DNA of 64,000 nt from Minisyncoccota bacterium (GTDB taxonomy: Bacteria > Patescibacteriota > Minisyncoccia > Phycocordibacterales > UBA2100): assembly GCA_035500505.1 (NCBI GenBank), contig DATJXE010000006.1:30037-94036 (forward strand). Direction: 5' to 3'. Positions 6,930 through 52,644 of the stretch are shown one piece after another. Each line of letters starts with the position of its first letter. The first letter of the stretch is position 1. The notes below the pieces were generated by a model, which saw only the letters and a list, made by a program, of their open reading frames with translations, had not been told where the DNA came from and made no database searches. A program made the translations under genes and the position numbers.

Positions 6930-7026
6930 GCGGTGTAGAGTACTCGGCGGCGGCTCTTTTGTCGAGACAACGTACAAAACGCCCCGAGGGGGCGTTTTGT
7001 GCTGCGTCCAGTCGAAAAAATGTTCT

Positions 7027-8843: not shown

Positions 8844-10289
8844 CTACTGCGCTCCCACTTTTGGTGCAAGCTTCTTCCCTAGACGTACGACGGGGGCGGA
8901 TATTTCACGTACCTCACGGGCCCGTTCCTTGATGTCGATAGGGTACCGCCCGGTAAAACACGAGGTGCACAGGCGCTCTTCCGGAACGCCGACCGCGCGG
9001 ACGAGCCCTTCGTAGGAGAGGTAATTGAGCGTCGTCGCGCCCAAAAAATCCCGGATGTCGGGCACGGACTTGGTCGCCGCGATGAGGTTCGCCTGCGCGG
9101 GAGTGTCGATGCCGTAAAAATCCGGATACAGGACGGGCGGCGAGGAAACGAGAAAATGCACCTCCTTCGCGCCCGCTTCGTAGAGCATGGCGACGATCTC
9201 GCGCGAGGTCGTGCCGCGGACGATGGAGTCGTCAAGGACGGCGACCCGCTTGCCGGCGAGAACTTCGGGGATGGGCGTCAGCTTCGCCTTCACACCTTGC
9301 TGTCGCATGTGCTGTTCCGGTTGGATGAACGTGCGGTGGATGTAGCGGTTCTTCGCGAGTCCCATTTCGAACGGGAGGCCCAAGCTCCCCGAATAGCCGA
9401 TGGCTGCGGGAATGCCGGTTTCGGGCACGGGAATGACGACGTCGACCTCAAGCGGAGATTCCTTGGCGAGCTCCATGCCGGAGCGGCGACGCACTTCATA
9501 GACCGATTGCCCCAAAAGGACACTGTCGGGCCGCGCAAAATAGACGAACTCGAACACGTCGAATTTCGGATCGGGCTCGGCAAGACACATCCCGCGCATG
9601 CCACGGGAATCGACGACGACCATTTCGCCCGGCTCGACCTCGCGCGCAAGCGTCGCGCCCAGAGGCGCGAGCGCGCAGGTTTCCGATGCGAAGACCCAGC
9701 CGCCGTTGAGGCGCGCCATCGAGAGTGGGCGCACGCCGCACCGATCGCGAAGCGCGATGAGCTTGTCGCGGGACATGATGAGGAGCGAGAACGCGCCGGT
9801 CATGAGCGGGTAGACTTCTTTGACCGCCGCGTCGACGCTCTTCCCCTCCTTCACGAGCGCGCCGACCGCCTCCGCTATCATGCGCGAGTCGGAAAAACTC
9901 GTTCCGTCGATCCCCTTTTCCTGCAAAAATCCCTCGAGCGCGGCCGTCGAGGGAAGGTTGCCGTTGTGCGCGAGCGTTATGGTGTCTTCGCCGCATTCGA
10001 CGATGACCGGCTGCGCGTGCTCGAGCTTCGAGCCGCCCGCGGTCGAATAACGATTGTGTCCCATCGCGATATGGCCCGTGAGTTTCTTGATGTCGTCTTC
10101 GGTATAGACCGAGGACACGAGCCCCATCGCCTTGTGGCACCGCACTTGCGTACCGTCAGAGACCGCGATGCCGGAACTTTCTTGTCCTCGATGCTGGAGC
10201 GCGTAGAGGCCGAAGTAGGTTAGCCGCGCGACGTCGAGGCCTTTTCCGTAGACCCCGAAGACCGCGCATTTCTCCCCGAGTTCTGCCAT
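8844..10289 (-). CDS. purF: Amidophosphoribosyltransferase
   Basis: MAELGEKCAVFGVYG gives an N-terminal Cys nucleophile (class II GATase). A PRTase domain is present, including VVVDSRGM-like and DDSIVRGTTS motifs. Confidence 0.9.
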   Translation of the reverse strand: MAELGEKCAVFGVYGKGLDVARLTYFGLYALQHRGQESSGIAVSDGTQVRCHKAMGLVSSVYTEDDIKKLTGHIAMGHNRYSTAGGSKLEHAQPVIVECGEDTITLAHNGNLPSTAALEGFLQEKGIDGTSFSDSRMIAEAVGALVKEGKSVDAAVKEVYPLMTGAFSLLIMSRDKLIALRDRCGVRPLSMARLNGGWVFASETCALAPLGATLAREVEPGEMVVVDSRGMRGMCLAEPDPKFDVFEFVYFARPDSVLLGQSVYEVRRRSGMELAKESPLEVDVVIPVPETGIPAAIGYSGSLGLPFEMGLAKNRYIHRTFIQPEQHMRQQGVKAKLTPIPEVLAGKRVAVLDDSIVRGTTSREIVAMLYEAGAKEVHFLVSSPPVLYPDFYGIDTPAQANLIAATKSVPDIRDFLGATTLNYLSYEGLVRAVGVPEERLCTSCFTGRYPIDIKERAREVREISAPVVRLGKKLAPKVGAQ

Positions 10290-10306
10290 GGTTCGATTAT
10301 AGCATC

Positions 10307-10413
10307 AGAGCCCGCCCCACCGGCATTTTTGACGACTGAGAATCTGATTGCGACGGCCGCCCTCAGGCGGCCTAGAGTCGGAAGTCGTCAAAAATGCCGG
10401 TGGGGCGGGCTCT
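10307..10413. repeat. Perfect 31-bp inverted repeat (AGAGCCCGCCCCACCGGCATTTTTGACGACT and its reverse complement) enclosing a 45-nt spacer that itself contains a GGCCGCC/GGCGGCC mini-hairpin
   Basis: Read directly: arms at 10307-10337 and 10383-10413. It lies 10 nt downstream of the DUF1003 gene stop and immediately upstream of a TATAAT box 6 nt before the purF ATG. Confidence 0.8.
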
Positions 10414-17380: not shown

Positions 17381-17451
17381 CTGGGGGACATGGACTCGAA
17401 CCATGATTCACAGCTCCAAAGGCTGCTGTCCTACCATTAGACGATCCCCCA
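17381..17451 (-). tRNA. tRNA-Gln (anticodon TTG)
   Basis: The reverse complement reads TGGGGGATCGTCTAATGGTAGGACAGCAGCCTTTGGAGCTGTGAATCATGGTTCGAGTCCATGTCCCCCAG. It has a 7-bp acceptor stem with a U1-A72 pair, the GGTTCGAGTCC T-arm, and a CTTTGGA anticodon loop. CCA is not encoded. Confidence 0.85.
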
Positions 17452-17529
17452 AACACGACTGATAGTAACAAAAAAACGGCTCGTTGGAACGCGCTGGCCA
17501 CTGAATCTTGTTTCGGGTAAAATCGACCG

Positions 17530-19740
17530 ATGCGGCAGATAGCAATGCTTACGGCCGCGGCTATCGGAGCCGTTTGCATCATCGCGGGGCTCTTCACGCT
17601 CAACCAGGTCGACCAGGAAGAACTCGACCTGACCGCGCGGTTGCAATCCCACTCGCAGATTGTCGCCGACAGCCTCGTCGACGAAGTCAGCCCTGCCTTC
17701 CGCTCCTACGCGACCAGCACGGTCCAAACGACCGTGGAAAAGTTCGCCAACGAGGAACGCGTCGTCGGCATCGGCGTGTACGACGCGAACGGCAATCCGG
17801 TCGCGCTCTCGGATGGACTTCCCCAGAACGTCAGCGGAGAGAACGTCATCCCGACCTCGATGGACAGCGACGCGGGCACCGGCGCTTACATCGGCAGCAG
17901 CCAGGGCGCGCTCTATGTCTTCTCCGACCCTATTACCGTTGACAACCACGTCATCGGCGCACTCGTCGTCGTGCAAAGCTCCCAATACATCAACGACGCG
18001 GTGACGGGCATCTGGAAGGACGCGCTCGTGCACCTCTTCCTCGAGATCATCCTCTTTGCGGGAGCCATCATTTTCATCGTGCGTTTCGTGTTCCGCCGAG
18101 CCATAACCGATGTCGCGGAATCGGTGCGCTCGATACGCGCGGGCGGCTCCGGCGACGAGCGGGGCGGCTCCGGCATGAGCATATTCCGGCCGCTCACGAG
18201 CGAGATAGCGAAAATGTCGACGAGTTTGCGCGATGCGCGCAGGGCCGCGAGCGAAGAAGCGCGCATGCGCCTGGAGAAACTCGACTCCCCTTGGACCGCC
18301 GAGCGCCTCAAGGAATTCATCAAAGCCTACCTCAAGGACCGGCCGATATATGTCGTCTCCAACGCCGAACCGTACGTGCACAACAAAGTAAAAAATAAGA
18401 TCGAATGGTCGGTGCCCGCCGGCGGTGTCATCACCGCGATAGAGCCGGTGATGGAGGCATGCGGCGGCACCTGGATCGCGCAAGGGAGCGGCGACGCCGA
18501 CAAGGCGGCAGCCAACAAAGAGGGCAAGCTGCGTGTGCCGCCTGAGGAGCCGAAATACACGCTCAAGCGCGTCTTCCTTTCGCCGAAAGAACGCAAAGGC
18601 TACTACGACGGCTTTTCCAACGAAGCGCTCTGGCCGTTGTGCCATCTGGCACACGTGCGCCCGCAATTCCGCAAAGAGGATTGGGCCGAATATCGCAAGG
18701 TCAACGGCATGTTCGCAAAAACGCTGCTTGAAGAGATCCGGCACGTCGAACGCCCGATAGTGCTCGTGCAGGACTACCACCTCGCGCTCGTCCCCGCGCT
18801 CGTCAAAAAAAGCCGGCCCGACGCGCAGGTCGCCATGTTCTGGCACATCCCGTGGCCCTCGGCCGCGCAATTTTCCATTTGCCCCTGGCGCAAAGAGTTG
18901 CTCGAGGGCATGCTCGGCGCCGACCTGGTCGGCTTCCACACGCAGCAGTACTGCAACAACTTCATGGATACCGTCGCCGCCGAGATCGAAGCGCGCATCG
19001 ACTTGGAGCGCTTCGCGGTCGTGCGCGGCGGGCACGAAACGCGCGTCGAACCCTTCCCCATTTCCATCGCCTTCCCGGGGAACGCCGAGATAGAAACCCC
19101 GCCCGACAGATCGATGCTCGACCAGCTCGGCATCAAAACGCCGCTTTTGGCGCTCGGCGTCGACCGGCTCGATTACATCAAAGGCATTCCGGAGCGCTTC
19201 CGCGGCGTCGAATTCTTGCTCAAAATGAACCCCGAATACCGCGAAAAATTCACACTGCTGCAGATAGCATCCCCGACGCGGCACGGCGTCGAGAAGTTCG
19301 AAGAATACGCGCAACAGGTGTTCACGGAAGCCGAGCGCATCAACGAGGCCTACGGCACCGAAACCTGGAAGCCCATCGTCATCGAGCACAAAAGCTACTC
19401 GCACTCGGATTTGCGCAAGCTCTATCAGCTCGCCGACGTGTGTCTCGTCACATCGCTCCACGACGGCATGAACCTCGTCGCCAAAGAATACGTCGCTGCG
19501 CGCTCGCAGGAGAACGGCGTCCTCATCTTGAGCCACTTCGCCGGCGCCTCGCGCGATCTCCCCACCGCGCTCAGCGTCAACCCGTACAGCGCGGAAGAAA
19601 CCGCCGAGGCGCTCAGGCTCGCCTTCACGATGCCCGAAAGCGAACAGCACCGCCGGATGAAGCAGATGCGCGCGGCGGTGCGTGATTACAACGTGTACCG
19701 CTGGTCGGCGGAGATCATCAAGGCGCTCGCGAAGCTGTGA
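17530..19740 (+). CDS. otsA: Alpha,alpha-trehalose-phosphate synthase (GT20) fused to an N-terminal two-TM sensor and HAMP-like module
   Basis: The C-terminal approximately 480 aa are a clear OtsA (YDGFSNEALWPLCH..., VQDYHLALVPALV..., FWHIPWP...). The N-terminal approximately 250 aa contain TM1 (LTAAAIGAVCIIAGLF), a roughly 140-aa extracytoplasmic domain, TM2 (LFLEIILFAGAIIFIVRFVF), and an amphipathic HAMP-like linker. Confidence 0.85.
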   Translation: MRQIAMLTAAAIGAVCIIAGLFTLNQVDQEELDLTARLQSHSQIVADSLVDEVSPAFRSYATSTVQTTVEKFANEERVVGIGVYDANGNPVALSDGLPQNVSGENVIPTSMDSDAGTGAYIGSSQGALYVFSDPITVDNHVIGALVVVQSSQYINDAVTGIWKDALVHLFLEIILFAGAIIFIVRFVFRRAITDVAESVRSIRAGGSGDERGGSGMSIFRPLTSEIAKMSTSLRDARRAASEEARMRLEKLDSPWTAERLKEFIKAYLKDRPIYVVSNAEPYVHNKVKNKIEWSVPAGGVITAIEPVMEACGGTWIAQGSGDADKAAANKEGKLRVPPEEPKYTLKRVFLSPKERKGYYDGFSNEALWPLCHLAHVRPQFRKEDWAEYRKVNGMFAKTLLEEIRHVERPIVLVQDYHLALVPALVKKSRPDAQVAMFWHIPWPSAAQFSICPWRKELLEGMLGADLVGFHTQQYCNNFMDTVAAEIEARIDLERFAVVRGGHETRVEPFPISIAFPGNAEIETPPDRSMLDQLGIKTPLLALGVDRLDYIKGIPERFRGVEFLLKMNPEYREKFTLLQIASPTRHGVEKFEEYAQQVFTEAERINEAYGTETWKPIVIEHKSYSHSDLRKLYQLADVCLVTSLHDGMNLVAKEYVAARSQENGVLILSHFAGASRDLPTALSVNPYSAEETAEALRLAFTMPESEQHRRMKQMRAAVRDYNVYRWSAEIIKALAKL

Positions 19741-19741
19741 T

Positions 19742-20518
19742 ATGGAGCACGCGCGTCGCGCTCTCGAACATATCGGGCGCCGCATGTCTCGCGGGCAGCA
19801 GCTCGTGCTCTTCCTCGATTTCGACGGCACGCTCGCGCCCATCGTACGAGACCCCTCGAAAGCGCGCATGGCGAAGCGCACGCACACGCTCGTCGAGCGA
19901 CTGGCACGGCGCGTGCCGCTTTACATTGTGACAGGACGTTCGTTGCGTGACATACGAAAACGCGCTCGCATACGCGGAGCGCGGTATGCCGGCAACCATG
20001 GCATGGAATGGAGCCGCGGTGCCGCGACCGAGAGTGTCCGCGTTTCGAGCGCCGCGCAAAAGGATGTTCGCGACGCGCTGCGGGCACTGCGCCCCCTCCG
20101 ACGGTACCGAGGCGTTTTTATTGAAGACAAGAAAATATCGGTCGCGTTCCATTACCGCGGTGTTTCGCGGCGTGAGATGCCGGAAGTCATCCAAACAGCG
20201 CACCGCGTGCTTGCTCCAATCCTCAAACGCGGCCGCATCGAGGCACTGCAGCAAAAGAAGCTGCTCGACGTGCGCCCGAAGGGCTGGCACAAGGGCGGCT
20301 TTGTCCGTTTGGTCATGCGGCACATGCCGAAGAACAGCGTCGCGGTCTATATCGGCGATGATGCGACGGACGAGGACGCGTTCGGCGCGCTCCGCGCGAG
20401 CGAGATCGGCATTCGCGTCGGTAAACGTTCTTCAAGTCGCGCGGGGTACTACCTTTCTTCGCAGCGCGCCATGGACGGCTTTCTATTGCGGCTCGCCGCA
20501 CAGATCGACGACCGCTAG
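19742..20518 (+). CDS. otsB: Trehalose-6-phosphate phosphatase (HAD family)
   Basis: LFLDFDGTLAPIV is HAD motif I, and GDDATDEDAF is motif III. The ATG is 2 nt after the otsA stop. Confidence 0.85.
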   Translation: MEHARRALEHIGRRMSRGQQLVLFLDFDGTLAPIVRDPSKARMAKRTHTLVERLARRVPLYIVTGRSLRDIRKRARIRGARYAGNHGMEWSRGAATESVRVSSAAQKDVRDALRALRPLRRYRGVFIEDKKISVAFHYRGVSRREMPEVIQTAHRVLAPILKRGRIEALQQKKLLDVRPKGWHKGGFVRLVMRHMPKNSVAVYIGDDATDEDAFGALRASEIGIRVGKRSSSRAGYYLSSQRAMDGFLLRLAAQIDDR

Positions 20519-30626: not shown

Positions 30627-32156
30627 ATGACAGCCGCAACGCCCAGGCCACTGAAGGAAATTCTCGACGCAATGTCGTCCAAGGACACCTCGGACATCGA
30701 CCTCGTCTCGAAAGCATACGAATTCGCCGAGACCGCGCACAAGGACCAGAAGCGTTACTCGGGCGATCCCTATTTCATCCACCCGGCAGAGGTCGGTTTT
30801 TCTCTCGCGCAGGCGGGAATGGATGCACACGCGATCGCGGCTGGCCTTTTGCACGACACCATTGAAGACGCCGGCGTGAAGCCCGCAACGATCGAGGAGC
30901 AATTCGGCAAGGAGGTCTTGACGCTCGTCGAAGGCGTCACGAAACTCGGCGCTCTACGCTATCGCGGCCTTGAGCGACACACCGAATCGCTCCGCAAACT
31001 CTTCGCGGCGACCGCAAAGGACATCCGCGTGCTCATCATCAAACTGATGGACCGCCTGCACAATGCGCGCACGCTCGAATTCGTGCCGAAGGAAGAAAAG
31101 CGCACGCGCATCGCGCTCGAGACGCTCGAGATATACGCTCCGATAGCGGACCGCCTCGGCATGAGCCTTCTCAAGCAAGAGCTCGAGGACGCGGCGTTCC
31201 CTTTCGCGCAGCCGAAAGAGTACGAGAAAACGCGCGAGATATTCAAGGAGCGCAAGCATGAGAACGAGAAGCGGCTCGAGAAGACCGAGCACGACCTCAA
31301 GCGCGAACTCGGAGAGGCGGGGCTCTTGAATTTCCGTACCGAAGCGCGCGTCAAAGGCGCGTACAGCCTCTTCCGCAAACTCGAGCGCAAGAGTTGGGAT
31401 TTTTCGAAGGTGTACGACATGCGCGCGCTGCGCGTCATCTTCCCGACGGTCGCCGATTGCTACTCGGCGCTCGGCGTCATCCACGCGCACTGGCGTCCGG
31501 TGCCCGGCAAGATAAAGGATTACATCGCCTTCCCGAAACCCAACGGCTACCAATCCATCCATACGACCGTGTACACGGGCGACGGCGGCGCCATCGAGAT
31601 ACAGCTGCGCACCGAAGCGCAGCACCGCGAAGCGCTTTTCGGCATCGCGTCCCACCTGACCTACAAAGAATCGCTCGAGGGCGGCAAGCGGCGCAGCAGT
31701 CTCGACTGGCTCCGTCAATTCTTCCCCGGTCGCGGAAAGAACGCGGACAAGCTTGCGCCGAACGAACGGGGCGGCGTGCCGGAGTGGGTCACGGAACTCG
31801 CTCACGCGCACGGCGATCAGGAGTCCGAGGAATATCTCGACACCCTGAAGACCGATTTTTTCAGCCACCGCGTATTCGTCTTCACGCCAAAAGGCGACGT
31901 CATCGACCTGCCCATCGAAGCCACGCCGATCGATTTCGCGTATGCGGTGCACTCCGATCTCGGCAACCACATGTCCGGCGCCCGCGTCAACGGCAAAATG
32001 GTGTCGCTCGAAACCCCGCTCCGGAACGGCGACATGGTGGAAATAATCACGAAGCCTGCAGGAAAACCGTCACGCAAGTGGCACGACATCGCGAAGACGA
32101 GCATGGCGAAGAAGCACATACGCGCGGCGCTCTCGGCGGCGGATAGGAAAAGGTAG
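30627..32156 (+). CDS. rel: Bifunctional (p)ppGpp synthetase/hydrolase, RelA/SpoT family (short form, HD + synthetase + TGS)
   Basis: The HD domain has HDTIEDAG. The synthetase domain has RVKGAYSLFRKL...YIAFPKPNGYQSIHT. A TGS-like C-terminus follows. The protein is 509 aa. Confidence 0.9.
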   Translation: MTAATPRPLKEILDAMSSKDTSDIDLVSKAYEFAETAHKDQKRYSGDPYFIHPAEVGFSLAQAGMDAHAIAAGLLHDTIEDAGVKPATIEEQFGKEVLTLVEGVTKLGALRYRGLERHTESLRKLFAATAKDIRVLIIKLMDRLHNARTLEFVPKEEKRTRIALETLEIYAPIADRLGMSLLKQELEDAAFPFAQPKEYEKTREIFKERKHENEKRLEKTEHDLKRELGEAGLLNFRTEARVKGAYSLFRKLERKSWDFSKVYDMRALRVIFPTVADCYSALGVIHAHWRPVPGKIKDYIAFPKPNGYQSIHTTVYTGDGGAIEIQLRTEAQHREALFGIASHLTYKESLEGGKRRSSLDWLRQFFPGRGKNADKLAPNERGGVPEWVTELAHAHGDQESEEYLDTLKTDFFSHRVFVFTPKGDVIDLPIEATPIDFAYAVHSDLGNHMSGARVNGKMVSLETPLRNGDMVEIITKPAGKPSRKWHDIAKTSMAKKHIRAALSAADRKR

Positions 32157-32160
32157 GGAG

Positions 32161-32287
32161 CAGCCCGCTTACACATCCTCTTTACTTTCCACTTTCGATA
32201 AAGCAACCTTTCGCCCTCAGGGTCCGGCACAGATATGGACGCCGAGGTGAAATTGAACACGAGTAAAGAGGATGTGTAAGCGGGCTG
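32161..32287. repeat. Hairpin element 1: perfect 26-bp inverted repeat (CAGCCCGCTTACACATCCTCTTTACT and its reverse complement) around a 75-nt loop
   Basis: Read directly: arms at 32161-32186 and 32262-32287. Confidence 0.85.
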
Positions 32288-32297
32288 CCATTGGTCG

Positions 32298-32429
32298 AGG
32301 TGGCGCGGAGTGGGTCGTTTTTGCTATCTTCTTCGAACAAAAAGACTTTTATATATGTGCCGGACCCTAACGTGAAGTTACAACATGCTCGAACGCGAGA
32401 GGGCAAAAACGACCCACTCCGCGCCACCT
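32298..32429. repeat. Hairpin element 2: perfect 27-bp inverted repeat (AGGTGGCGCGGAGTGGGTCGTTTTTGC and its reverse complement) around a 78-nt loop; loop segment 32357-32368 is complementary to loop segment 32219-32230 of element 1
   Basis: Read directly: arms at 32298-32324 and 32403-32429. The right arm abuts the parB stop codon. Confidence 0.85.
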
Positions 32430-33372
32430 ACACCGAAAAATTCGAGATAGAGTACAGGTCGTCGGACCCGTCACTTGCGGACCCTTGAGGAGCAGATGGT
32501 TCCTCCCCGACTTGCTCGGATGGCGCGGAAGCGGGCGGTTGCGTGGCGCCCGCGCGAGAGACCATGTCGCGGATGTGCGCGAGATCGTCGACGGAAAAGA
32601 ATTCTATCAACACCTTCCCGCCCTGATCCTTTTTCTCGATGCGCACGCGCGTGCCGAATTTTTCGGTAAGTTCGCGCTCGAGGAGAAGGAGTTCCGGCGT
32701 GAGGTCACCCTTGCGCGCGCGCTCCGTCGCGATCCGCCGCGCCATTTGTTCGGTATCGCGCACAGTGAGACGCTTGGCGATAACTTCTTTGAAAAGCGTC
32801 ACCTGTTCGGCCGCTCTGTCCATGAGCATCAGAAGAGGCCGCGTGTGACCTTCGCTTATTTCCCCGCTCGAAAGCGCGTCTTGCATTTCTTTGGGCAACC
32901 CCAAGATGCGCAGCGTGTTGGAGACGTACTCGCGACTCTTACCGACTCGTTTTCCTATCTCGGCATGCTTCAGGCCGAACTCGTTCGCGAGGCGCTGGAA
33001 AGCCAAGGCCCGATCGATCGGGTTCAGATCTTCGCGTTGTAAGTTCTCGATGATGGCGATCTCGAGTTTCACCCGGTCGGAATCTTCGGCCGTGCGGATG
33101 ACGACCGGCACTTCGCGCACGCCGGCCATCTTCGCCGCGCGAAGCCTTCGCTCGCCGGCTATCAGTTCGTACTCGACGGAAATACCTTCCCCAGGCCGTT
33201 CTATCTCTTTGCGCGTAACAGTAAGGGGTTGGAGAACGCCATAGCTGCGTATCGACTCCGCGAGGGACGCGAGCGCAGCCTCGTCGAAAGTCTTTCGCGG
33301 CTGGAACGGATTGGGTTTTATCCTTTCAACCTCGACCCAAAAAATGGAATCATAGCGTCCATTACCTGGCAT
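32428..33372 (-). CDS. parB: ParB/Spo0J chromosome partitioning protein
   Basis: ParB N-terminal box (GERRLRAAKMAGV...), HTH, and C-terminal dimerisation region. No parA is adjacent on either side. Confidence 0.85.
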   Translation of the reverse strand: MPGNGRYDSIFWVEVERIKPNPFQPRKTFDEAALASLAESIRSYGVLQPLTVTRKEIERPGEGISVEYELIAGERRLRAAKMAGVREVPVVIRTAEDSDRVKLEIAIIENLQREDLNPIDRALAFQRLANEFGLKHAEIGKRVGKSREYVSNTLRILGLPKEMQDALSSGEISEGHTRPLLMLMDRAAEQVTLFKEVIAKRLTVRDTEQMARRIATERARKGDLTPELLLLERELTEKFGTRVRIEKKDQGGKVLIEFFSVDDLAHIRDMVSRAGATQPPASAPSEQVGEEPSAPQGSASDGSDDLYSISNFSV

Positions 33373-33403: not shown

Positions 33404-34198
33404 GTGTTGAAGTTTTTTACAGCTTTTATCGATATGACACATGCTATACTTTTTCGCATGCAAACCTACTCGATCAGGTCCGCCGACATGGTGCTCGACG
33501 CGCCGCATGCGCGCGGGCGCACCTACATATTGAAACTGCGCGACCTGCCTCCTGCGGAAAAGCCGCGGGAAAAACTTCTCGCGCTCGGCGCCTCCGCGCT
33601 TTCGGTCGCGGAACTCATCTCCCTCGTGCTCGGGAACGGGACCACGAAGGAGGACGTCCGCACGATGAGCGAGAGGATCGTGCGCGAGTACGGCGAACGC
33701 AGCCTTGCAGGCGACACCGATCCGGAGAAGCTCAGCAAGGACCTCGGCATTCCGCTCGTGAAAGCGATGCAGATCGCGGCATGCGCGGAGCTCGGCAGGC
33801 GCTTTTTCAGCAAGAACGAGCGGGGGCTTGTCGTCGTGCGCACGGCGAGCGACGTTTTCGACTACCTCAAAGATATGCGCGACCTTTCCAAGGAGCACCT
33901 GCGCGGGCTCTACCTCGACAATCAGCACAAGGTCATCCACGATGAAGTCATTTCGATAGGCACCATCGATGCCAATCTCGTGCACCCGCGTGAAGTGTTC
34001 AAGCCGGCGCTCGAATATTCCGCCGTCGCGGTCATTCTCGCGCACAACCACCCGTCCGGCTCCACGGAGCCGAGTGAAGCCGACATCGGGATAACGAAAC
34101 AGCTCGTGCAAAGCGGAAAGATAATGGGCATCCAACTTCTCGACCACGTCATCATCACGAGGACCGCGTTTGCGAGCATCCCCGTCTCGTATGACTAG
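33404..34198 (+). CDS. radC: RadC-like JAB-domain protein
   Basis: HNHPSGSTEPSEADIGITKQL is the JAMM motif, and there is an N-terminal HhH-like region. Confidence 0.8.
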   Translation: MLKFFTAFIDMTHAILFRMQTYSIRSADMVLDAPHARGRTYILKLRDLPPAEKPREKLLALGASALSVAELISLVLGNGTTKEDVRTMSERIVREYGERSLAGDTDPEKLSKDLGIPLVKAMQIAACAELGRRFFSKNERGLVVVRTASDVFDYLKDMRDLSKEHLRGLYLDNQHKVIHDEVISIGTIDANLVHPREVFKPALEYSAVAVILAHNHPSGSTEPSEADIGITKQLVQSGKIMGIQLLDHVIITRTAFASIPVSYD

Positions 34199-51072: not shown

Positions 51073-51214
51073 GGCGCCGTTTGATGAAACACGGCAAGCA
51101 GTGCGACTGCTCGCGTCTTGTTTTTATGTATTTGTTGCCGCACTCGCAGACGAGCACTGCCGGTTGCGCCGGGTTGTCTATCCACTTGCCGTTTTTCATG
51201 AATGTTTTTGCCAT
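51065..51214 (-). CDS. Small zinc-ribbon protein (49 aa, CxC...CxxC)
   Basis: MAKTFMKNGKWIDNPAQPAVLVCECGNKYIKTRREQSHCLPCFIKRRHG. The ATG is 1 nt after the DEAD-box helicase stop (TAA-T-ATG). Confidence 0.4.
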   Translation of the reverse strand: MAKTFMKNGKWIDNPAQPAVLVCECGNKYIKTRREQSHCLPCFIKRRHG

Positions 51215-51215
51215 A

Positions 51216-52418
<1,203 letters not shown>

Positions 52419-52607
52419 ATGAGCCCGATATACGGGCTTTTCCGCTCCGCCCTCCACCGCGAGGGCGGAGGGGGAATGCGGACTAAAATAAGTTGTCGAA
52501 CGATCTCGGGACGGATTCGCCTGAAGCTTCGAGGCGGCCTTGGAAATCCCAAGACAAAAACCGAGGAGAAATGTTTGACGGGAGTAAGTATAGCAGAAAG
52601 AGAACGC

Positions 52608-52638
52608 TTGTCAACCGCGGTCGGCACCGATGTATACT
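52608..52638 (+). promoter_or_regulatory. Putative promoter TTGTCA-N19-TATACT just upstream of the cupin gene start (leaderless-like)
   Basis: Read directly. The ATG at 52645 lies 7 nt after the -10. Confidence 0.3.
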
Positions 52639-52644
52639 GAACAC

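Follow-up and report, generated by a model that had tools for sequence, protein, structure and literature searches.

The Correia/NEMIS MITEs of Neisseria are non-coding intergenic elements of about 100-160 bp with inverted ends of about 26 bp, and the whole element folds as a long RNA hairpin able to influence transcript ends and processing by RNase III. In REPINs, two inverted units make up a doublet whose hairpin has about 25 bp and a spacer of ~70 nt, and inverted repeats flanking short segments are a hallmark of invertible switches. Palindromic extragenic elements of the REP/BIME type are concentrated between converging genes (PMC3733652, PMC1525189), and such elements have been proposed as transcript-end regulators (bioRxiv 10.64898/2026.03.23.713779). 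With respect to the origin of such structures, template switching during replication can create, homogenise and enlarge inverted repeats (PMC8794818, PMC13100816). The genomes of CPR bacteria (Patescibacteria) are small and tightly packed. Their TIGR-Tas units have variable palindromic stems, with conservation only beside the loop and sometimes an extra hairpin within the loop; the stems diverge even within one array, and an occasional linkage to ParB homologues, with TasA-ParB operons, has been described (PMC12045711, bioRxiv 10.64898/2026.09.09.750476). In the literature no description was found of non-coding DNA in CPR genomes of the kind that is reported here.

We compare with these systems two adjacent hairpin elements, hp1 and hp2, that lie between the converging genes rel and parB in a stretch of 64,000 nucleotides, the whole of which was analysed and is referred to as the window. 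At a probability of roughly 55%, hp1 and hp2 are palindromic inserts of a MITE/REPIN/foldback-like kind at gene 3' ends, which are kept perfect by copying of one arm from the other and probably act as two-way transcript-end or insulator hairpins.

Two hairpins between rel and parB

The elements, their flanking genes, the complementary blocks within their loops and a third long hairpin (hp3) at another position of the window are as follows:

10307..10413, no strand assigned: hp3, two perfect arms of 31 nt with a loop of 45 nt, flanked by the stop of a DUF1003 gene and the purF start
30627..32156, + strand: rel, RelA/SpoT family, 509 aa, the left converging gene, with the stop codon TAG at 32154-32156
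32160..32288, no strand assigned: hairpin element hp1, 129 bp, perfect 27-nt arms (32160-32186 and 32262-32288) and a 75-nt loop
32219..32236, + strand: block B in the loop of hp1, AGGGTCCGGCACAGATAT, the reverse complement of B' at 17 of 18 positions
32298..32429, no strand assigned: hairpin element hp2, 132 bp, perfect 27-nt arms (32298-32324 and 32403-32429) and a 78-nt loop
32351..32368, + strand: block B' in the loop of hp2, ATATATGTGCCGGACCCT
32428..33372, - strand: parB, 314 aa, the right converging gene, with the stop codon TAG at 32428-32430

The source organism belongs to Candidatus Paceibacterota (Kaiserbacteria-like CPR bacteria). The best matches of its Rel protein are found in Candidatus Paceibacterota and Kaiserbacteria, and the remaining window holds housekeeping genes (topA, serS, ftsZ, ftsA, groEL, purF, purH and others). 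Genes for transposases, integrases, reverse transcriptases, RAYT/HUH proteins, recombinases or Nop-domain (Tas) proteins are not encoded in the 64-kb window. The first-pass annotation had called parB an orphan, and indeed an adjacent parA is absent from the window as well as from the relatives with called genes (L001-L004); the next gene past parB is radC (33404-34198) on the opposite strand, at a place where relatives have miaA (IPT).

The first element begins 4 nt past the stop codon of rel, and the last two bases of hp2 belong to the stop codon of parB, such that both together occupy the 271-nt gap from the rel stop to the parB stop. An inverted-repeat scan found the arms of hp1 to be 100% complementary over 27 nt, one pair more than the 26 bp from 32161 that had been described before, whereas the perfect 27-bp stem described for hp2 was recovered as such, with a pairing that extends imperfectly to 37 nt at 89% (arms 32293-32329/32398-32434). 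The measured loops of 75 and 78 nt agree with the earlier estimate of ~75-78 nt, but the spacer between the units is 9 nt long (32289-32297) and not 10 nt. When the region was folded on both strands, as had been proposed with the annotation, it formed two strong and independent hairpins with z about -12 (-12.3 and -12.9 for RNA, -12.4 for DNA), and 0 shuffles folded as well. Perfect inverted repeats of more than 13 nt within 220 nt occur three times in the 64-kb window, namely as hp1, hp2 and hp3. Hence, hp1 and hp2 are real and not a chance structure. An assembly artefact is excluded by the presence of the same architecture in independent assemblies from JGI, ENA and NCBI.

The small open reading frames in the loops of hp1 and hp2, as read from the sequence, span only 6-20 aa and are without ribosome-binding sites. 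A frame of 81 aa running across both elements shares words with no protein among 5.8 billion, and only repetitive low-complexity matches were obtained for it among 1.84 billion representatives. That copies of hp1 and hp2 are hidden as spurious open reading frames was rejected, since the 81-aa frame is without a real homologue. Elsewhere in the window, long antisense open frames that are arginine-rich and low in third-position GC (17437-19887, 39636-41615, 51081-52640 and others) overlap real genes, i.e. those for a GT20 glycosyltransferase, ftsZ and a DEAD-box helicase; a third-position GC of ~0.71-0.82 separates real genes from spurious frames in the source genome.

A complementarity of 12 nt between the two loops had been pointed out in the first-pass annotation, and it is present and even longer: blocks B and B' match at 17 of 18 nt, with 13 matches in a row, and are placed at about equal offsets within their own loops. 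This match score was reached by 0 of 1000 shuffles, and the duplex of loop 1 with loop 2 of the window is calculated at -47 kcal/mol, compared with -25.5 +/- 4.3 kcal/mol for shuffles.

Neither stem is followed by a U-tract, the following bases being CATTGGTCG on the + strand and CGACCAATGG on the - strand, and a terminator scan finds nothing at the hairpins, so that any termination at hp1 and hp2 would have to proceed by a block through the hairpin or by cleavage of the 27-bp duplex and not by the classical route. An ordinary bidirectional terminator is located at 6957-7017 of the window between two - strand genes (ACAAAACGCCCC GGG GGGGCGTTTTGT), and the source genome thus also uses classical A-tract/stem/T-tract terminators.

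Junction hairpins and related elements in other genomes

A metagenome scan yielded 80 Rel loci with a total of 954 kb, and homologues of the hairpins were searched for in 1.1 Mb of related DNA. The converging arrangement of rel and parB is conserved in the 73 loci of relatives that hold both genes, and the stop codons usually overlap by 4 nt, otherwise by 11 nt, or are spaced by 0 nt. Converging genes with overlapping or abutting stops are the ancestral state. The gap is enlarged to 33-268 nt in about 20 of the 73 loci; with few exceptions these gaps form long hairpins when folded, the largest of which span from stop to stop, and their sequences are unrelated to hp1 and hp2 and mostly unrelated to each other. 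By the comparison of these loci, many relatives evidently carry hairpins of the same build, but of different sequence, at the rel/parB junction. In the lineage of the window, about 260 nt of hairpin DNA lie exactly between the stops of the two genes.

In the two genomes whose Rel proteins are the most similar (86-87% identity), the stops are separated by 12 and 5 nt; these closest relatives by Rel do without a hairpin at the junction, so that a function for which the hairpin is needed is at most hypothetical. By its flanking DNA, the window groups with L023, L022 and L021, and all four carry large hairpins, in gaps of 271 nt (window), 268 nt (L023), 157 nt (L022) and 116 nt (L021); the flanking DNA of the nearest relatives is ~78% identical to that of the window. 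The hairpin is single at L021 and L022, and L020 has none. In several relatives the gaps are layered, with perfect inner stems and decayed outer stems, and L049 and L091 have a common outer layer that encloses different inner hairpins. Two further loci, L046 and L076, hold ordinary A-tract/stem/T-tract terminators in the rel/parB gap.

The locus L023 (11529-11799) resembles the window in that its 268 nt between rel and parB consist of two adjacent hairpins, with stems of 28 and 24 bp and loops of 84 and 83 nt. Here the loops are mutual reverse complements over most of their length (nhmmer E = 4e-5) and contain identical blocks of 13 and 11 nt, and their duplex reaches -91 kcal/mol compared with -47 +/- 5 kcal/mol for shuffles. 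The inner stems and the outer GGCGC ends are alike too, so the second hairpin of L023 is an inverted, since diverged copy of the first. The earlier description of the two stems as unrelated is correct for the window, but it does not extend to L023, where one of the adjacent hairpins is, for the greater part of its length, an inverted copy of its neighbour. For this reason the complementarity of B and B' is likewise read as a leftover of a duplication: hp1 and hp2 would represent a later stage of decay of an L023-type duplication, in which only the 18-nt block is left, and a relic of inverted duplication is most simply what the complementary loops may be taken for.

Related hairpins are not confined to one position. 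The loop of hp3 contains its own 7-bp hairpin, which is closed by CTCA, and the element has a homologue in the rel/parB hairpin of L021 (blastn E = 3e-13, 83% over a 69-nt core); the outer stem has diverged and the core is conserved, with both copies being perfect. Furthermore, L076:3179-3300 matches L034:2555-2661, and L046:4-94 matches the gap of L025, in both cases at different positions. At least one hairpin family, as judged from these alignments, evidently occurs at different loci in different genomes. L103 and L104 carry an ordinary terminator ahead of the conserved purF promoter, exactly at the position of hp3 in the window. As the gene order upstream of purF is not conserved in relatives, it was not possible to define an empty site for hp3. 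The purF gene itself has an apparent extended -10 promoter, TGCTATAAT (window 10286-10306, - strand), that ends 7 nt before the ATG, and the arrangement is conserved in L103 (4975-5003) and L104 (TGCTACAAT). A promoter 7 nt from the ATG and without a ribosome-binding site suggests that the purF mRNA may be leaderless.

In all of the elements with long stems and large loops, the outer half of the stem is rich in GC and the 5' arm carries a T-run at its inner end, and hp1, hp3 and the L021 hairpin have a similar outer end, AG(C/T)CCG. An assignment of hp1 and hp2 to the hp3/L021 family was nevertheless rejected: the features in common (AGCCCGC at positions 3-9 of the arms, CGCCCTCAGG within the loops and the inner T-run) are suggestive but were not significant in shuffle tests, and a covariance model recovered neither hp1 nor hp2. 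A second copy of hp1 or hp2 was found neither in the 64-kb window nor in the 1.1 Mb of related DNA or in phage, plasmid and viral collections. The loop motif AGGGTCCGGCACANATAT was also considered as a conserved element and discarded, with 15 scattered single matches to unrelated taxa in 185,579 species genomes, which is the chance level. Similarly, the stems are not captured foreign DNA in the manner of spacers, as three stem probes of 19-27 nt gave 0, 0 and 0 matches against IMG/VR; a 19-mer probe of the hp3 stem gave one single-arm match, probably by chance.

Concerted arms and the candidate explanations

In an alignment-based fold, hp3 and the L021 hairpin differ at eight pairs that have changed on both sides, one of these being in the small in-loop hairpin, and at one pair with a one-sided change (A-U to G-U), and 0 pairs are broken when alignment gaps are excluded. 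Loop-less perfect palindromes of 36-44 nt, which run from stop codon to stop codon, are present at other converging junctions in relatives and allow two further comparisons, between orthologous palindromes of 38-42 nt: L097 4082-4123 and L093 11026-11065 have 5 compensated and 0 one-sided differences, and L073 11530-11569 and L077 5040-5077 have 2 compensated and 0 one-sided differences. Summed over the three comparisons, 15 pairs have changed on both arms and 1 on a single arm. Several stems of the clade are perfect over 24-31 bp. In the hairpins and palindromes compared, the arms evidently change together, and the stems stay Watson-Crick paired while their sequence drifts. The mirrored changes of the arms and the perfect stems of 24-31 bp point to a copying of one arm onto the other at the level of DNA. 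G-U pairs would also be disfavoured if a hairpin were selected to work in both transcripts, but such selection is the less likely cause. Perfect arms had been taken in the first-pass annotation to imply either recent origin or selection; a third cause, the copying of DNA from arm to arm, has the better support, in that changes are almost always two-sided.

Other palindromes of the clade deserve mention in this context. Those of L073, L077 and L027 are centred on CCATGG. At L105 (13556-13597) and L094 (7399-7432) terminators with an A-run, a GC stem and a T-run are found whose palindromy continues 7-10 nt past the A/T runs; as RNA would not need this extended symmetry, it hints at an outward growth of the palindrome at the level of DNA. 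Nested perfect palindromes, the arms of which are themselves palindromic (e.g. ACCAAGGTCCGACCTTGGT), occur at L026 14317-14357, L033 8434-8474, L053 15267-15309 and L035 13292-13333, i.e. at an orthologous place inside a putatively coding open frame of 312-330 codons.

For hp1 and hp2, the reading as palindromic inserts implies the following course of events. One arm would serve as the DNA template of the other, and the two would thereby stay identical, which may occur by intramolecular template switching or gene conversion during replication, RNA-level selection being less likely. The second element, hp2, would go back to an inverted copying of hp1, or of a parent of both, such as may still be visible in L023, and the 18-nt complementarity between the loops would be the remnant of this inverted duplication. 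Each element could then provide either of the converging transcripts with a 27-bp hairpin just past its stop codon, and these hairpins may act as two-way transcript-end, insulator or RNase III-type processing hairpins. A role at transcript ends is probable by analogy of position, since relatives have ordinary terminators there; the elements may equally be neutral passengers at a site where insertions are harmless. Some movement or copying between loci is needed to account for the homologous cores at different loci and for the otherwise unexplained new sequence, and on the pattern in the relatives we infer that hp1 and hp2 themselves may have been mobile. A palindromic hairpin element of the MITE/REP type had been among the options listed at the outset, and it is the one favoured here, given that many relatives have their rel/parB gap filled by hairpins built alike, and that one family is present at two loci.

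Two alternatives concern the origin of the elements. They could be classical MITEs, whose 27-bp arms are terminal inverted repeats bound by a transposase that is encoded elsewhere in the genome. The small non-coding elements (129 and 132 bp) with perfect 27-bp terminal repeats in intergenic position fit this description, and in these respects they presumably match MITEs such as the Correia elements; moreover, one family is found at different loci, and the outer ends of hp1, hp3 and L021 are similar. The explanation is nonetheless doubtful, because none of about 12 elements (hp1, hp2, hp3 and 9 related hairpins) shows a flanking direct repeat that could be a target-site duplication, and because divergence is greatest in the terminal parts of the arms, with a conserved interior, whereas ends bound by a transposase would show the reverse. 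In addition, no transposase is encoded in the window, and a second identical copy of hp1 or hp2 was not found in the 64-kb window or the 1.1 Mb of related DNA; the hp3 family is present at two loci in two genomes. Conversely, the hairpins could have arisen purely locally, through repeated template switches at the stop-stop junction and without any mobile element, a scenario for which the layered "onion" palindromes of relatives (perfect inside, decayed outside), the loop-less perfect palindromes from stop codon to stop codon and the concerted change of the arms can be cited, and the template-switching literature supports such events. Yet template switching copies nearby sequence, and the arms and loops of hp1 and hp2 match nothing else in 64 kb, nor would homologous cores be expected at different loci in different genomes, which renders a solely local origin quite improbable.

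The remaining alternatives assign the hairpins a function of their own. The first-pass annotation had suggested a structured non-coding RNA or RNA switch, including a 12-bp kissing loop, and in this form the two hairpins would be a conserved RNA or single-stranded DNA whose loops pair, as a kissing complex or in an alternative fold, and thereby regulate the ends of the rel and parB transcripts. The complementarity on which the proposal was built stands, and its significance in the window (0/1000 shuffles; duplex energy well separated from that of shuffles) speaks for such pairing, as does its recurrence in L023, where it is found in a wholly different sequence with the same two-hairpin layout and near-equal total length, and thus resembles the covariation of an interaction. 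A selected contact, however, would be expected to be shorter than the complementarity of L023, which spans almost the whole loops and reaches into the stems, as after inverted duplication. Other observations point the same way: L021 and L022 have single hairpins and L020 none, neither loop is conserved in sequence between genomes or has a homologue in the 1.1 Mb of related DNA, block B is partly buried in the local structure of hp1, and 18 continuous pairs between two closed loops would be topologically strained. Furthermore, the search of Rfam that had been proposed found no family: with permissive thresholds, the best match of the two hairpin regions was a Phe leader at 19.6 bits against a threshold of 55 (E = 2.8), such that nothing at the hairpins exceeded the gathering threshold, and two tRNAs were the only matches in the whole window. 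The switch or kissing-loop explanation is therefore possible, but distinctly unlikely and not favoured, and survives as a minority view through the recurrence in L023. Counter to the preferred reading as inserts, a double hairpin of ancient origin and conserved function might be common to the window and L023. This would make the double hairpin at the rel/parB junction a bipartite device of RNA or DNA that consists of structure only, having kept its stems and loop complementarity while all bases turned over. It would link or insulate the ends of rel, a gene of the stringent response, and of parB, a gene of partition; in a wider sense, these CPR genomes could contain undescribed self-homogenising palindromes that home to stop-stop junctions with neither a transposase nor a target duplication. 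We regard this bold proposal as unlikely. Very improbable is a derivation from orphan stem-loop guide RNAs of a TIGR-Tas system, which the literature on diverging stems and ParB-linked Tas brings to mind. As in TIGR units, a palindromic stem of variable sequence flanks each unit, the outer stems vary with a conserved inner stem, and hp3 has a central hairpin in its loop; but the loops, at 75-78 nt, are about twice as long as expected, the hairpins occur singly or in pairs instead of in arrays of 5-15, and a Nop-domain (Tas) protein is missing from the window. The layout of box C, 9-nt spacer and box D is absent as well: by the TIGRFinder rule (two 14-nt intervals of box C CNA, 9-nt spacer and box D YG, <=15 nt apart and flush with the stem), 0 pairs were obtained on either strand of hp1, hp2, hp3 and 14 related hairpins. 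Equally hard to sustain is a site for proteins on DNA, be it a ParB loading site, the target of a cruciform-binding protein or, with the inverted repeats at its flanks, an invertible promoter switch. The elements do adjoin parB, for which reason a protein-binding locus had been considered in the first-pass annotation, and perfect inverted repeats can extrude as cruciforms, but a parS-like sequence does not occur in the window even with 3 mismatches allowed, the same kind of hairpin is found at junctions unrelated to parB, the loops contain no promoter-like site, and a recombinase gene is not present nearby.

Comparison with known systems

In this clade, long hairpin inserts have repeatedly opened the 4-nt overlap between the stop codons of a conserved pair of converging genes, and the strict concert of the arms (15 two-sided changes versus 1 one-sided change) makes the clade a natural test bed for the origin and maintenance of hairpins by template switching. 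For annotation, long perfect hairpins at 3'-3' junctions in these genomes are to be treated as recurrent inserts and not as novel riboswitch-like RNAs. Should transcripts be ended or processed at the hairpins, this would also show how transcription is terminated where genes of CPR bacteria overlap.

Bidirectional intrinsic terminators are similarly situated between converging genes directly past the stop codons and have GC-rich stems, and ordinary ones are present at the same junction in some relatives. By contrast, the stems of hp1 and hp2 have 27 bp instead of ~5-14 bp and the loops 75-78 nt instead of 3-8 nt, and the T-run is located inside the 5' arm, with none after the stem. With hairpins generated by template switching (PMC8794818, PMC13100816, PMC5453318), the elements have in common the perfect arms, the compensated changes without one-sided intermediates, and the growth and homogenisation of repeats; switching alone, however, leaves unexplained both the source of ~130 nt of new sequence per element and the homologous cores at different loci. 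The stem-loop TIGR arrays of CPR bacteria are alike in their variable palindromic stems, in a conservation that is restricted to the vicinity of the loop and in the host group, but differ in having the box layout, a Tas gene nearby, shorter loops and an array.

Resemblances also exist to palindromic extragenic elements. Correia/NEMIS elements share with hp1 and hp2 the size, the inverted ends, the non-coding intergenic placement and the fold as a long hairpin, whereas elements of the hp1/hp2 type are without TA or any other target duplication, are apparently single or low in copy number, diverge at the ends and are conserved in the interior, and have no partner transposase in the window. REP, BIME and REPIN elements, for their part, are likewise extragenic palindromes at converging genes with a hairpin and a spacer of comparable size. 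In contrast to these, the elements of the window lack the GTAG or CGTC tag (the arms start with GCAG, AGGT and AGAG), no high copy number and no repeat family are seen in the 64-kb window, which also contains no HUH/RAYT gene, and the stems are unique in sequence instead of being family-wide repeats. With these likenesses and differences taken together, hp1 and hp2, which stand out by an exceptionally clean signal of concerted arm evolution and by a hot spot at a stop-stop junction, are best classed with the palindromic extragenic elements that are known from other bacteria, as a variant specific to their lineage.
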